Assembly: GCF_044324875.1 (NCBI RefSeq)
Contig: NZ_CP172185.1
From: Escherichia coli
Lineage (GTDB): Bacteria; Pseudomonadota; Gammaproteobacteria; Enterobacterales; Enterobacteriaceae
Length of the DNA stretch: 64,000 bases
Reading direction: 5' to 3' (one strand)
Shown: piece after piece, positions 25,765 through 31,952 of the stretch
Layout: every line of letters begins with the position of its first letter
Numbering within the stretch: the stretch's first letter is position 1
Position numbers and translations under genes: made by a program
Notes under the pieces: model-generated
Seen by the model: the letters and a program-made list of their open reading frames with translations, nothing else
What the model was told of the DNA's origin: nothing
Databases searched by the model: none

Positions 25765-25858
25765 AAAATAAATATATTCTGAAAAAATATGCCGACTCTT
25801 GCATGAGAGTGGGCATATTGCCATGCTGACAGGAGACTCACACAAGGATGTAAAATTT

Positions 25859-26239
25859 ATGTTGCGTATATTTATCCCAACATCTAACGGTAAGATTTCC
25901 AGACGCCGTTATATATTTTCATTTATTTTAATAAATTTCATTTTTGCCTTTCTTATTATCTTTTTTAACGATGGGGACGCAGGTTTTCTTGTTATTGTCT
26001 CTACCATCGCACTCCATTATCTCGTCATCAACATAAATTGCCAACGACTCCGTGATAGTGGTTTCATATATATAAAAACTTATGTTTTTGGTACATTAGC
26101 AGTATATATCATCTCTATCATCACAATGATAGCCGAACATTTTGATTGTTCAGGCAATGGTTCGATGATTTTTTTGATTTGTTATTTTTCCACTTTCAGT
26201 ATGCTAATGCTTGCACCTACTGATTCATCAAAACAATAG
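25859..26239 (+). CDS. yigG: Small inner membrane protein YigG
   Basis: ORF track begins at 25799; internal start [34 protein letters not shown] gives ~126 aa. AT-rich; conserved position after rarD. Confidence 0.6.
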
Positions 26240-26252
26240 TTATGGAGTATTT

Positions 26253-26633
26253 ATGAGTAAGGAGTATATGAACGATGGTTCATTAAGTGAAAAATGGAAA
26301 TACCGATTTAACTTTTATGATCAACATGGCTTTCCTGGATTCTGGGGGGCAACACCAGAATATAAAGCAGCATTTAAAACATTAAAAGTAAGACAACGAT
26401 TAACTATTCAAATGAATTTCATTGCTTTCTTCTGTTCCTGGATCTATTTATTTGTTCTGGGATTATGGAAAAAAGCAATTATAGTTCTATTACTTGGCAT
26501 TCTATCTCTATTTGTTGGTGCACTAATTGGCGTTAACATTCTGGGAATTGCCGTAGCAGCCTATGTTGCTGTTAACACGAACAAATGGTTTTATGAGAAA
26601 GAGGTAAAAGGGTTAAATACCTGGAGCCTTTGA
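26253..26633 (+). CDS. yigF: Small inner membrane protein YigF
   Basis: ORF track begins at 26211; internal start MSKEYMNDGSLSEKWKYRF gives ~126 aa with TM segments. Confidence 0.6.
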   Translation: MSKEYMNDGSLSEKWKYRFNFYDQHGFPGFWGATPEYKAAFKTLKVRQRLTIQMNFIAFFCSWIYLFVLGLWKKAIIVLLLGILSLFVGALIGVNILGIAVAAYVAVNTNKWFYEKEVKGLNTWSL

Positions 26634-26640
26634 ATAACAG

Positions 26641-26677
26641 GTGGCTTAGCCAGGCTAAGCCACCGCTCTCGTTTTTT
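26641..26677 (+). terminator. Rho-independent terminator after yigF (possibly bidirectional with corA)
   Basis: Stem gtggcttag / ctaagccac with loop ccagg, followed by cgctctcgtttttt. Confidence 0.5.
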
Positions 26678-27995: not shown

Positions 27996-28760
<765 letters not shown>

Positions 28761-28842
28761 GCATTGTACACTCGAGGAGGCCAGACAAACTGGGACTGGC
28801 TACACAGCTGGAAAATCATCAGATAAATGAAGGGAAACAAAA

Positions 28843-29745
28843 ATGAAAAAAACGCTCGCAACGTTATTTTTATTAACGTGTCTGGGATCATCATCCGCCT
28901 ATGCGGATAACGCTCTGATTTTACAAACTGATTTTAGCCTGAAAGATGGTGCCGTCTCGGCGATGAAAGGGGTCGCATTCGGCGTTGACCATAATCTTAA
29001 AATCTTTGATTTAACACACGAAATTCCACCGTATAACATCTGGGAAGGCGCTTATCGTCTGTATCAGACTGCCAGTTACTGGCCGCAAGGTTCGGTGTTT
29101 GTTAGCGTGGTCGATCCGGGCGTAGGCACTGACCGTAAATCGGTAGTGCTGAAAACCAAAAACGGTCAATACTTCGTTTCACCAGATAACGGTACGCTCA
29201 CTTTGGTGGCACAAACTCTGGGTATTGATAGCGTCCGGGAAATCGACGAAAAAGCTAACCGCCTGAAAGGTTCTGAAAAGTCATATACCTTCCACGGTCG
29301 TGATGTGTATGCCTACACCGGTGCGCGTCTGGCTTCCGGGGCGATTACGTTCGAACAGGTGGGGCCAGAGCTTCCTGCAAAAGTTGTCGAACTTTCTTAT
29401 CAGAAAGCCAAAGCAACAAAAGGTGAAGTGAAGGGCAATATCCCGATTCTCGATATTCAGTACGGCAACGTCTGGAGCAATATCAGCGACGAGTTGCTGA
29501 ATCAGGCAGGAATCAAACTCAACGACACGTTGTGTGTGACCATTTCCGAAGGTTCCCAGCAAAAATACGCAGGGAAAATGCCGTATGTCGCAAGCTTCGG
29601 CGATGTGCCGGAAGGCCAGCCGATGGTGTATCTGAACAGCTTGTTGAATGTTTCCGTGGCGCTGAATATGGATAATTTCGCGCAGAAACATCAGGTTACG
29701 TCTGGTGCTGACTGGAATATTGATGTGAAGAAGTGCGCTAAGTAA
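28843..29745 (+). CDS. Secreted DUF62-family protein (SAM hydroxide adenosyltransferase / fluorinase-chlorinase-like fold)
   Basis: 300-aa ORF with cleavable signal peptide (MKKTLATLFLLTCLGSSSAYA); motifs LQTDFSLKDGAVSAMKGVAFGV, FDLTHEIPPYN, VFVSVVDPGVGT and the C-terminal LNSLLNVSVALNMDNFA fit my recollection of the DUF62 family. I do not recall a gene here in K-12. Confidence 0.6.
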   Translation: MKKTLATLFLLTCLGSSSAYADNALILQTDFSLKDGAVSAMKGVAFGVDHNLKIFDLTHEIPPYNIWEGAYRLYQTASYWPQGSVFVSVVDPGVGTDRKSVVLKTKNGQYFVSPDNGTLTLVAQTLGIDSVREIDEKANRLKGSEKSYTFHGRDVYAYTGARLASGAITFEQVGPELPAKVVELSYQKAKATKGEVKGNIPILDIQYGNVWSNISDELLNQAGIKLNDTLCVTISEGSQQKYAGKMPYVASFGDVPEGQPMVYLNSLLNVSVALNMDNFAQKHQVTSGADWNIDVKKCAK

Positions 29746-29754
29746 GGTGCTGAT

Positions 29755-29785
29755 GCGGGATGCGGTGTGGCGCACCGCATCCCGC
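29755..29785. terminator. Strong hairpin between convergent DUF62 gene and uvrD (likely bidirectional terminator)
   Basis: 13-bp perfect inverted repeat gcgggatgcggtg-tggcg-caccgcatcccgc in the 44-bp gap between the two stops. Confidence 0.5.
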
Positions 29786-29789
29786 AACG

Positions 29790-31952
29790 TCACACCGTCT
29801 CCAACCGGGCGTAAGCCGCCACCAGCCATTTAATACCCTGGCCCTGGAATGCCACCTGCAAACGGCTATGCTCACCGCTGCCTTCCATATTGACGATGGT
29901 GCCTTCACCAAACTTAGCGTGGCGTACGCGCTGGCCGAGCTTGTAGCCGCTGTCGTTCTCGACCATCGGCGTACCCATCCGTTGATGGCTGACCGGGCGG
30001 CTTACCGTGGCGCGCAGGCGCACCTCTTCCACACACTCTTCCGGCAGCTCGCCGATAAAGCGCGACGGGCGATGGTAAACCTCTTTGCCATACAGACGGC
30101 GGGTTTCCGCGTAGGTCAGCGTCAGTTTCTGCATCGCGCGGGTTACGCCAACGTAGGCCAGACGGCGTTCTTCTTCCAGACGTCCGCCTTCATCCAGCGA
30201 CATCTGGCTTGGGAACATGCCCTCTTCCATACCGACGATAAACACCTGCGGGAACTCCAGACCTTTCGCCGAGTGTAGCGTCATCAACTGCACCGCATCC
30301 TGCCAGGTATCCGCCTGCCCTTCACCTGCTTCCAGTGCCGCATGGGAGAGGAACGCCTGCAGCGGCATTAAATCTTCGTCTTCTTCGTTGTAGCTGAACT
30401 GGCGCGTCGCCGTCACCAGTTCCTCTAAGTTTTCGATACGCGTCTGGCCTTTTTCGCCCTTCTCCTGCTCGTACATGGTGCGCAGGCCGGAGTCTTTAAT
30501 GACCCGGTCAGTCTGTACATGCAGCGGCATATCGGCAGTTTCCTGCGCTAAGGCGTCGATCAGTTCCATAAACCGTTGCAAGGCACTGGCAGCACGTCCG
30601 GCGAGGGCTTTTTCCTGCAACAGTTCACGACATGCCTGCCAGAGTGTTAACTGGCGATCGCGCGATGTCTGACGTACCACGTCCAGCGTCCGGTCACCAA
30701 TACCCCGCGTTGGCGTATTCACCACGCGCTCAAAGGCCGCGTCGTCGTTGCGGTTGGCAATCAGGCGCAGATATGAGAGCGCGTCTTTGATTTCCTGGCG
30801 TTCGAAGAAGCGCATCCCGCCGTAAATACGGTACGGCATACTCGCCTGCAACAGTGCTTCTTCCAGCACGCGCGACTGGGCGTTGCTGCGGTAGAGAATG
30901 GCGCACTCGGCGAGCGCCCCGCCGTTATCCTGCCAGGTCTTGATACGGTTAACCACAAAACGCGCTTCGTCGAGTTCGTTAAAAGCGCAATAGAGGGAAA
31001 TCGGCTCACCGTCCGCGCCATCGGTCCACAGTTTTTTACCCAGACGCCCGTTGTTGTTTTCAATCAGGGCGTTCGCGGCGCTCAGAATATTGCTGGTAGA
31101 GCGGTAGTTCTGCTCCAGACGGATAGTTTCAGCACCGGGGAAATCATTGAGAAAACGCTGAATATTCTCGACCTGCGCCCCACGCCAGCCGTAGATTGAC
31201 TGGTCGTCATCACCGACGATCATCACTTTGCCGGTGTCGCCCGCCAGCAGGCGGATCCACGCGTACTGAATGTTGTTGGTATCCTGGAATTCGTCCACCA
31301 GGATGTTGGTAAAACGTTCGCGGTAGTGTTGCAGGATATGCGGCTTGTTAAGCCACAACTCGTGAGCGCGCAGCAGCAGCTCGGCGAAGTCCACCAGGCC
31401 CGCACGATCGCACGCTTCCTGATACGCCTGATACACCTTCTGCCAGGTCTGCTCCACCGGGTTACCGTAGCTTTGAATATGATGCGGACGCAGGCCTTCA
31501 TCTTTCTGGCTGTTGATGTACCACATTGCCTGGCGCGGCGGCCACTGCTTCTCGTCGAGGTTCATAGCTTTGATCAGACGCTTAAGCAGGCGTAGCTGGT
31601 CTTCACTGTCGAGGATCTGGAAATCCTGCGGCAGATTGGCGTCCATATGGTGCGCACGCAGCAAACGGTGCGCCAGCCCGTGGAAGGTGCCGACCCACAT
31701 GCCGCCCTGGCTGGTGCCCATCAGTTGCCCGATACGATGACGCATCTCCGCCGCCGCTTTGTTGGTAAACGTCACAGCCATAATCGAGTATGGCGAGCAG
31801 TTTTCCACGCTCATCAGCCAGGCGATACGATGCACCAGTACGCGCGTCTTACCACTGCCCGCGCCCGCCAGCACCAGAAGGTTGCTGCGTGGCGCGGCCA
31901 CCGCTTCGCGCTGTTTGTCATTAAGGCTGTCGAGCAGGTAAGAAACGTCCAT
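29790..31952 (-). CDS. uvrD: DNA helicase II UvrD
   Basis: ORF track gives 738 aa; known UvrD starts MDVSYLLDSLNDKQREAVAAP (720 aa); Walker A GSGKT present. Confidence 0.95.
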   Translation of the reverse strand: MDVSYLLDSLNDKQREAVAAPRSNLLVLAGAGSGKTRVLVHRIAWLMSVENCSPYSIMAVTFTNKAAAEMRHRIGQLMGTSQGGMWVGTFHGLAHRLLRAHHMDANLPQDFQILDSEDQLRLLKRLIKAMNLDEKQWPPRQAMWYINSQKDEGLRPHHIQSYGNPVEQTWQKVYQAYQEACDRAGLVDFAELLLRAHELWLNKPHILQHYRERFTNILVDEFQDTNNIQYAWIRLLAGDTGKVMIVGDDDQSIYGWRGAQVENIQRFLNDFPGAETIRLEQNYRSTSNILSAANALIENNNGRLGKKLWTDGADGEPISLYCAFNELDEARFVVNRIKTWQDNGGALAECAILYRSNAQSRVLEEALLQASMPYRIYGGMRFFERQEIKDALSYLRLIANRNDDAAFERVVNTPTRGIGDRTLDVVRQTSRDRQLTLWQACRELLQEKALAGRAASALQRFMELIDALAQETADMPLHVQTDRVIKDSGLRTMYEQEKGEKGQTRIENLEELVTATRQFSYNEEDEDLMPLQAFLSHAALEAGEGQADTWQDAVQLMTLHSAKGLEFPQVFIVGMEEGMFPSQMSLDEGGRLEEERRLAYVGVTRAMQKLTLTYAETRRLYGKEVYHRPSRFIGELPEECVEEVRLRATVSRPVSHQRMGTPMVENDSGYKLGQRVRHAKFGEGTIVNMEGSGEHSRLQVAFQGQGIKWLVAAYARLETV

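Follow-up and report, generated by a model that had tools for sequence, protein, structure and literature searches.

The stretch of DNA analysed here, referred to as the window, comprises 64,000 nucleotides of the Escherichia coli contig NZ_CP172185.1 (assembly GCF_044324875.1), and the analysis concerns a gene at positions 28843..29745 of its plus strand, the product of which belongs to the DUF62, or S-adenosylmethionine (SAM) hydroxide adenosyltransferase, family and carries a predicted signal peptide. The open reading frame (ORF) begins with ATG and runs without interruption through 300 codons to its stop, and its status as a coding sequence (CDS) is based on the ORF list, RefSeq, Pfam and the ratio of non-synonymous to synonymous substitution rates (dN/dS). 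The ORF and its surroundings, 2 kb in all, match the E. coli 042 chromosome (NC_017626.1) at 100% identity, and there RefSeq names the product a ‘SAM hydrolase/SAM-dependent halogenase family protein’ (WP_000751630.1). As the gene is already annotated at the family level, its bare identification as a family member is not new. Upstream, on the same strand and across a gap of 82 bp, lies yigE (27996..28760), annotated in RefSeq as an exported phosphodiester glycosidase family protein, while the downstream neighbour is the convergent uvrD (29790..31952, minus strand, likewise from the RefSeq annotation). The coordinates and neighbours reported in an initial annotation of this DNA agree with the ORF list and with the RefSeq annotation of 042. 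A putative Shine-Dalgarno-like AAGGGA (28830..28835, plus strand) can be read 8 nt 5' of the ATG.

The assignment to DUF62, which the initial annotation proposed with a Pfam accession (PF01887), is borne out by the profile match, the motifs and the fold, and the Pfam search showed that the accession was correct. The SAM_HAT_N domain (PF01887; 4.9e-53) covers residues 26-174, i.e., 28918..29364 on the plus strand, and positions 2-145 of the 145 in the model, and the SAM_HAT_C beta domain (PF20257; 3.8e-18) covers residues 198-291, at 29434..29715 on the same strand, and positions 1-83 of 84. All the significant phmmer matches in the PDB are members of the same family, including Thermotoga maritima 2ZBU (1.3e-43), SalL, ClA1, Pyrococcus horikoshii PH0463, MJ1651 and the fluorinases. 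The AlphaFold monomer model, which was built on a 36-sequence alignment, has a mean predicted local distance difference test (pLDDT) score of 93.3 and a predicted template modelling (pTM) score of 0.87, and presents the two domains typical of the family, an alpha/beta/alpha N-domain followed by an antiparallel beta C-domain. When this model was compared with the PDB in Foldseek, the 40 matches at E<=0.001 were all DUF62 proteins, with target-normalised template modelling (TM) scores of 0.79-0.91 (0.90 to 2zbu and SalL, 0.87 to the P. horikoshii SAM hydroxide adenosyltransferase), and nothing other than noise was found beyond them.

The hallmarks of the DUF62 family are the PxNGL and IDxxFGN motifs, together with a ribose-binding Asp and an adenine-binding Asn, which are D16 and N215 in the fluorinase numbering (PMC4859513). 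In the E. coli protein, the counterparts of the motifs are PDNG (residues 114-117, plus strand) in SAM_HAT_N and LDIQYGNVWSN, which includes Asn209 and Asn213, in SAM_HAT_C (plus strand), and Asp30 (28930-28932, plus strand, in SAM_HAT_N) and Asn213 were equated with D16 and N215 of the fluorinase FlA by their position relative to these motifs. The hydrolases of the family are defined by the Asp-Arg-His triad D68-R75-H127, in PH0463 numbering (PMC4859513; PMC10491745), which is missing from the halogenases, where the fluorinase has T80-S158 and SalL has Y70-G131 instead (PMC4859513). The corresponding residues of the E. coli protein, all encoded on the plus strand, are Asp91 (29113-29115), Arg98 (29134-29136) and His151 (29293-29295), which align to positions 68, 75 and 127 of 2zbu, whereas SalL has Tyr72 and Tyr130 opposite D91 and H151, and its halide-site Tyr70 aligns with V89. 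Given this, the active site is, by residue alignment, of the hydrolase type and not of the halogenase type. These positions are also well conserved, given that D30, N116-G117, R153-D154 and G208 are invariant, D91 nearly so, and N213 at least 90% conserved in the 36-sequence alignment. In a second alignment, of 33 exported relatives, no sequence departs at D30, D91, R98, N116 or N209, and H151 and N213 are kept in all but one, a Synergistaceae metagenome-assembled genome (MAG).

The N-terminus of the protein has the structure of a signal peptide, as the initial annotation had claimed. Codons 1-21 (MKKTLATLFLLTCLGSSSAYA; 28843..28905, plus strand) follow the rules for Sec export and processing by signal peptidase I, with an MKK n-region that contributes K2 and K3, a hydrophobic core (TLATLFLLTCLG; h-region T4-G15), and the c-region SSSAYA|DN, with its A-x-A motif (A19-Y20-A21|D22), which places the predicted cleavage site at A21|D22. 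The maximum 10-residue Kyte-Doolittle mean of the h-region exceeds 2 in near-identical Escherichia alleles, and the N-terminus contains no twin-arginine motif. All the solved homologues begin at the equivalent of residues 23-29 of the query, which leaves its first 22 or so residues without a counterpart, and the AlphaFold pLDDT drops to approximately 55 at residues 1-20, while exceeding 90 over most of what follows.

The strongest support for the signal peptide is comparative. In a scan of bacterial and archaeal assemblies, with one genome per species and short peptide patterns as the probe, 80 loci with 55-98% identity were recovered, and nearly all of them encode a hydrophobic extension of 25-45 residues before the xTDFG motif, the exceptions being a few truncated or mis-started ORFs. 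These loci come from Aeromonas, Edwardsiella, the Pasteurellaceae and Neisseriales, the Chitinophagaceae (Bacteroidota), the Opitutaceae/Verrucomicrobiota, Synergistota, Fusobacteriota, Thermotogota and Planctomycetota, and the Gram-positive Tissierellia. The extension is also present in 51 of the 87 full-length sequences in the top 150 representatives of 50%-identity clusters, with no extension being found in 31. On this comparative evidence, the signal peptide appears, with good support, to mark a large exported subfamily that is distributed over many phyla.

Two cysteines may be related to the same location. Cys231 (29533-29535) and Cys298 (29734-29736), which delimit 29533..29736 on the plus strand, form a clade-specific, co-varying pair. 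In the 33-sequence alignment used for the tree, both are found in every sequence from Escherichia, Helicobacter, Aeromonas, Edwardsiella, the Pasteurellaceae, the Neisseriales/Burkholderiales MAGs and Thorsellia, as well as in one Desulfobacterales MAG, and both are missing together from all the other exported relatives. This co-variation is the pattern expected for a disulfide formed after export, and suggests that Cys231-Cys298 is a candidate periplasmic disulfide. A third cysteine, Cys13, was considered as the modified residue of a lipoprotein and rejected, given that the lipobox [LVI][ASTVI][GAS]C is not matched (042 has L-L-T-C13, with Thr at -1), that only 12 residues precede this Cys, and that it is not conserved, since H. 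acinonychis has His and H. pylori SA213A has Gln at this position, and Aeromonas lacks it.

Of the 5426 complete E. coli genomes, 2413 (44%) carry the gene, including those of ST131, O157:H7, O127:H6 and BL21(DE3). Each carrier has one chromosomal copy, except for a genome with a second place that was assigned to a plasmid, and the gene lies between corA and uvrD in every carrier locus that was inspected. The gene is absent from the K-12 derivative DH1, which bears out the suggestion in the initial annotation that there is no such gene in K-12: the homology of DH1 with 042 ends just past the yigE stop and resumes approximately 24 bp before the uvrD stop. The polymorphic segment, defined by BLAST and the population counts, corresponds to 28761..29766 of the window (no strand assigned), being present in 042-type genomes and replaced in K-12-type genomes by a spacer of approximately 120 bp that contains a repetitive extragenic palindromic (REP) sequence. 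The REP sequence in the empty site of DH1 (L002:2362-2482) is typical of its kind (GCCGGATGCGGCGTAAACGCCCTATCCGGCCTACA).

At least four structural states of the corA-uvrD interval can be distinguished. Both yigE and the DUF62 gene are present in 042, BL21 and ST131, and yigE alone is present in K-12. In the third state, seen in two strains, the DUF62 gene occurs without yigE as the allele WP_000754468.1, with nucleotide identity of approximately 94.8%. The fourth is a decayed pseudogene in strain HS-02. When the two strains of the third state, E. coli 120899 (L090:2246-2500) and HD12481 (L092), were compared with positions 27996-28842 of the window, they were found to have approximately 140 bp of unrelated DNA after ysgD and a diverged upstream spacer (approximately 80% identity). 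The count for the gene alone exceeds that for the 2-kb stretch by 119 genomes, a difference that fits the number of genomes in the 90-95% identity band (128). The HS-02 pseudogene (L088:4915-5772) is located at the same site and has a frameshift and stops, with approximately 80% overall identity to 042 and a 3' half approximately 91% identical to the BL21 allele, which is explained either by long-standing decay of the allele or by recombination. The yigF of HS-02 also has an internal stop, and assembly quality is a possible factor in this strain.

Where the gene is kept, it is conserved as a protein. Of 40 alleles sampled evenly along the identity ranking, 39 are annotated as intact, the exception being that with the lowest identity, from HS-02. 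The dN/dS ratio is 0.04-0.10 within Escherichia, within Helicobacter and between the two, with the intact E. coli alleles having a ratio of approximately 0.1 (synonymous divergence, dS, 0.18-0.30) among themselves and of 0.04-0.06 when compared with the allele of a cryptic-clade Escherichia. In E. coli, then, this is a dispensable accessory gene that is under purifying selection where it is retained. As the cryptic-clade Escherichia has the same corA-yigE-gene-uvrD order, ancestral presence followed by loss is favoured over repeated gain.

The closest relatives outside Escherichia and Shigella are found in Helicobacter. The next matches are H. pylori and H. acinonychis proteins of 300 amino acids, with approximately 90% amino-acid identity over the full length, and the top match clusters are mostly from H. 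pylori, with a single 90% cluster containing 2579 member sequences, an indication that the gene is widely present in this species. The genomic context of the H. pylori homologue (uvrA, an HP_OMP-family gene, rsmH, HP0708, HP0709 and homA) identifies it as HP0709/jhp0648 (UniProt O25413), which has the same length, signal peptide architecture, triad and Cys pair as the E. coli protein, and is an apparent ortholog by transfer. The Escherichia and Helicobacter genes have 84% nucleotide identity (65% at third codon positions), with a dS of approximately 0.9-1.1 and a dN/dS of 0.05-0.07, values that indicate a transfer between phyla that is old in generations and a protein that has been kept constrained. 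A neighbour-joining tree of 33 sequences (300 bootstraps) groups Escherichia with Helicobacter in 300/300 replicates, Escherichia alone in 292/300 and Helicobacter alone in 294/300, and unites both with Edwardsiella in 239/300. Aeromonas, the Pasteurellaceae, Thorsellia and the Neisseriales/Burkholderiales MAGs are the other relatives with 65-76% identity. The H. pylori copy has a GC content of 42-45%, against 37-38% in its flanks, and the species-representative scan returned no further Helicobacter species, a result that is suggestive only, given that the scan depends on short peptide patterns. Taken together, the sister grouping, the GC contrast with the flanks and the distribution within Helicobacter point to an Escherichia-like enterobacterium as the donor and the H. 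pylori lineage, before H. acinonychis split off, as the recipient, although the direction of the transfer is inferred.

The two loci are otherwise unrelated. The DNA similarity begins and ends with the CDS, no homology being found in the flanks of the E. coli and H. pylori loci, and HP0709 lies in the order rsmH-HP0708-HP0709-homA, between the two copies of a duplicated hom promoter. In the H. pylori sequence CP079055.1, the CDS is flanked by a 154-bp direct repeat (L003:7835-7988 and L003:9009-9162, 87% identical) which consists of the hom promoter and the first 11 or so codons of hom, an outer-membrane protein gene, and the upstream copy closes with a shortened ORF, ‘MRKQFTPLLLFRK*’, immediately 5' of the HP0709 ATG. 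This arrangement suggests that HP0709 was inserted into, and is expressed from, a duplicated hom 5' region. Neither a plasmid nor a phage vector survived inspection, as the high-identity ‘plasmid’ matches are mislabelled 4.9 Mb chromosomes, and a match to ‘Helicobacter phage Pt11444_1’ is host flank joined to a prophage prediction. The ‘complete phage genome’ PQ159899.1 (L091) includes the chromosomal uvrA, an outer-membrane protein gene, rsmH/MraW, HP0708, HP0709 and homA, and the borders of the prophage seem to be over-extended; the HP0709-homA locus of this strain has a prophage nearby.

In the literature found, HP0709 appears in three contexts only. A genome-wide association study (GWAS) of gastric cancer identified it through a non-synonymous Asp/Asn polymorphism at nucleotide 145 (codon 49), with ‘conflicting annotations’ being admitted (PMC6090961). 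It has also been found in an outer-membrane-vesicle proteome that contains ribosomal proteins as well (PMC8756444), which, like the Cys pair, supports actual export only indirectly, and is one of eleven serological markers (PMC11394471). The GWAS paper lists it as ‘adenosyl-chloride synthase’ (PMC6090961), and many database records (P0006, P0009, P0043 and P0059, among others) name the protein ‘acetolactate synthase’. Judged from the sequence, both of these names are wrong, as they fit neither the domain content nor the active-site residues. The literature searches found no mention of an exported or periplasmic DUF62 enzyme, and no characterisation of HP0709/jhp0648.

The features described above lead to the interpretation preferred here, in which the gene encodes a periplasmic hydrolase of SAM, or of a SAM-like adenosyl-sulfonium compound, with a nutrient-scavenging role. 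The probability of this combined statement is put at roughly 0.55. Certainty is much higher for export and family membership, with export and chemistry being well supported, and lower for SAM as the substrate and for the scavenging role. The protein would be exported to the periplasm by the Sec pathway and cleaved at A21|D22, releasing mature residues 22-300, which would take up the two-domain DUF62 fold and probably assemble as a trimer, the form typical of the family being a homotrimer with its active sites at the subunit interfaces. A 5'-activated adenosine would then be bound, with Asp30 holding the ribose hydroxyls and Asn209/Asn213 the adenine, and Asp91-Arg98-His151 would activate a water molecule for an SN2 attack at C5', which would expel the sulfonium leaving group and convert SAM (or the SAM-like adenosyl-sulfonium) and H2O into adenosine and L-methionine. 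An extracellular adenosyl-sulfonium, assumed not to be importable, may in this way yield two transportable nutrients, with free adenosine potentially being released at the host surface as a by-product. Adenosine is among the purines that H. pylori uses most efficiently for growth, being taken up via NupC (PMC3368855).

This proposal differs from what has been suggested for the cytoplasmic enzymes. The role proposed for (R)-SAM hydrolases is the removal of intracellular (R,S)-SAM (PMC10491745), and an intracellular repair role of this type cannot apply to an exported enzyme. Even the cytoplasmic role of the DUF62 family itself has been questioned (PMC12120602).

A number of observations weigh against a periplasmic SAM hydrolase. 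The signal peptide is based on sequence rules and comparison, and the substrate is extrapolated from cytoplasmic relatives which are only 30-34% identical. SAM is intracellular and chemically labile, and its steady supply outside the cell is uncertain. The curated (R)-SAM hydrolase equivalogs of NCBIfam, NF058624 and NF053629, are the best-scoring curated families, and yet the protein scores far below their cut-offs, with 131.5 bits against 350, and 117.1 against 470. In a survey of 83 loci, in which all the ORFs of at least 80 amino acids were clustered, and two neighbours on each side were considered in approximately 35 diverse loci, no conserved neighbourhood was found beyond genus-level synteny, and there was no consistent link to nucleoside or methionine transporters. 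The gene is, in addition, missing from 56% of the complete E. coli genomes, which indicates that any benefit must be conditional. Finally, the DUF62 hydrolases that have been characterised are slow enzymes, and physiological salt concentrations inhibit StDUF62 (PMC12120602), properties that are a poor fit with a scavenging role.

The alternative that survives best, and which is possible though clearly less probable, is that the protein is indeed exported and uses its DUF62 chemistry or pocket for a ligand other than SAM, such as 5'-halo- or 5'-sulfamoyl-adenosine, or a nucleoside antibiotic or toxin, or that it is mainly an adenosine-binding protein. The twilight-zone scores in the curated (R)-SAM hydrolase models would be consistent with this, as would the exported location, which speaks against a normally intracellular cofactor, and the debate over the physiological substrate that surrounds even the cytoplasmic DUF62 enzymes (PMC12120602). 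A few scattered neighbours related to purines or bases, an 8-oxoguanine deaminase (L064) and a cytosine/NCS1 permease (L057), point in the same direction. On the other hand, the full triad and the ribose and adenine contacts are under strong purifying selection, which would be needless in a mere binding protein, the gene context backs no alternative substrate, and SAM is used by every characterised member of the fold (PMC10491745; PMC4859513). The other NCBIfam assignments of chosen neighbours, an AidB-like metallo-hydrolase and a creatininase-like protein, are, like the two just mentioned, unrelated or anecdotal, and the idea that a neighbour in Sebaldella/Fusobacteriales is a class II cyclic-nucleotide phosphodiesterase was a guess that the NCBIfam annotation did not confirm.

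A reading in which the gene persists in E. coli as an effectively neutral remnant, whether acquired horizontally or ancestral and on its way out, with no current function, is unlikely. Its absence from more than half of the complete genomes, the structural polymorphism of the locus and the existence of at least one decayed pseudogene allele (HS-02) are what would be expected of such a remnant, but they are outweighed by the dN/dS of approximately 0.1 among the E. coli alleles, at a dS of approximately 0.18-0.20, and of 0.04-0.06 against the cryptic-clade allele, by the 39 intact alleles of the 40 sampled, and by the occupation of the same position in the cryptic-clade Escherichia.

The two remaining possibilities are highly improbable. 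If the protein were an ordinary cytoplasmic (R)-SAM repair hydrolase, in keeping with the cytoplasmic location of its characterised relatives, the ‘signal peptide’ would be the artefact of a mis-called start, a possibility that the initial annotation itself had raised; the codons from 2 to 40 include no ATG, GTG or TTG, however, which makes codon 1 the sole start that keeps the invariant Asp30, given that the next start, Met41, would remove both this residue and strand 1, and neither the preservation of this type of extension across phyla nor the co-varying Cys pair fits a cytoplasmic protein. An exported SAM-dependent halogenase (a chlorinase or fluorinase) that makes 5'-halo-5'-deoxyadenosine would account for the RefSeq name, the strong sequence and structure matches to SalL and ClA1, and the label given to HP0709 in the GWAS paper (PMC6090961), but is contradicted by the hydrolase triad, with the SalL Tyr72/Tyr130 falling at D91/H151, by a score of 84 bits in the fluorinase equivalog TIGR04507 (cut-off 400), and by the published finding that the hydrolases with the triad show no halogenation (PMC4859513).

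The preferred reading, a periplasmic hydrolase, can be placed among the known systems of the superfamily. The E. coli protein resembles the DUF62 hydrolases PH0463 (1WU8/2WR8), T. maritima 2ZBU and MJ1651 in having both Pfam domains, the PxNG and DxxF/YGN motifs and the aligned triad, with TM scores of 0.87-0.90 for PH0463 and 2ZBU, and 0.85-0.87 for MJ1651 of Methanocaldococcus jannaschii. These hydrolases, in contrast, are cytoplasmic proteins whose chains begin at the first beta strand, and the E. coli protein adds the 21-residue signal peptide and the clade-specific Cys pair to a predicted activity. The (R)-SAM hydrolases, that is, StDUF62 of Salinispora tropica and the archaeal SaciSAMH and HvSAMH, belong to the same superfamily and have the same predicted chemistry, and differ from the E. 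coli protein in their cytoplasmic location and in defining equivalogs that it does not reach. The halogenases SalL, ClA1/ClA2 and FlA share the fold and the SAM-binding scaffold, and are distinguished by their active sites, in which SalL has Tyr at two of the triad positions plus the Y70-G131 halide site, and FlA has T80-S158, in comparison with D91/R98/H151 in the E. coli protein.

On a broader scale, it may be suggested, if only tentatively, that a widespread exported branch of DUF62 splits extracellular SAM, or a related compound, released from lysed cells or host tissue, in a previously unrecognised scavenging and possibly adenosine-generating, host-modulating role, and that one member of this branch gave rise to the widely conserved HP0709 through a transfer linking the Escherichia lineage with the H. 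pylori ancestor. The physiological purpose of the DUF62 enzymes is still argued, and the sole proposal, the removal of intracellular (R,S)-SAM, has recently been questioned (PMC12120602). With the exported branch making up 51 of the 87 nearest full-length representatives and the triad being kept, a sizeable part of the family must act otherwise, outside the cell. An exported enzyme of a SAM family, and its link between E. coli and H. pylori, would surprise specialists, even though the mechanism is inferred. The near-identity with HP0709 shows plainly that a gene has passed between an enteric bacterium and a gastric pathogen, and also provides a biochemical hypothesis for an uncharacterised protein that is a gastric-cancer GWAS hit and a serological marker.

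The function is testable in two tractable organisms, and within E. coli, BL21(DE3) naturally has the gene and K-12 is naturally without it. The copy in BL21(DE3), a standard expression host, is intact and natural (NZ_CP081489.1 2100705-2101607; L089), which is relevant when recombinant SAM hydrolases or SAM-dependent enzymes are assayed in crude or periplasmic extracts.

The remaining features of the locus are of lesser weight. A strong GC-rich hairpin at 29746..29796 (no strand assigned; -37.8 kcal/mol, z = -6.2) occupies the 44 bp that separate the stop codon of the DUF62 gene from that of the convergent uvrD, and is likely to be a transcription stop shared by the two genes, although it has no T-tract and the terminator scan made no call there. 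A consensus scan of the 82-bp spacer returned no promoter for the DUF62 gene itself, with the overall matches not being above those in shuffled sequences. The upstream neighbour, yigE, adjoins the DUF62 gene only in Escherichia, and is not a conserved partner; its product also has a signal-peptide-like N-terminal segment, and matched no NCBIfam model at E<=0.001. The composition of yigE (G+C 0.475, GC content at third codon positions, GC3, 0.506) equals that of the DUF62 gene, which has 47.7% GC in E. coli, and both corA and uvrD have higher values. The yigG-yigF region of the window (25799-26650), 5' of corA, has a G+C content of 0.33-0.35, in comparison with 0.52 for the window as a whole.

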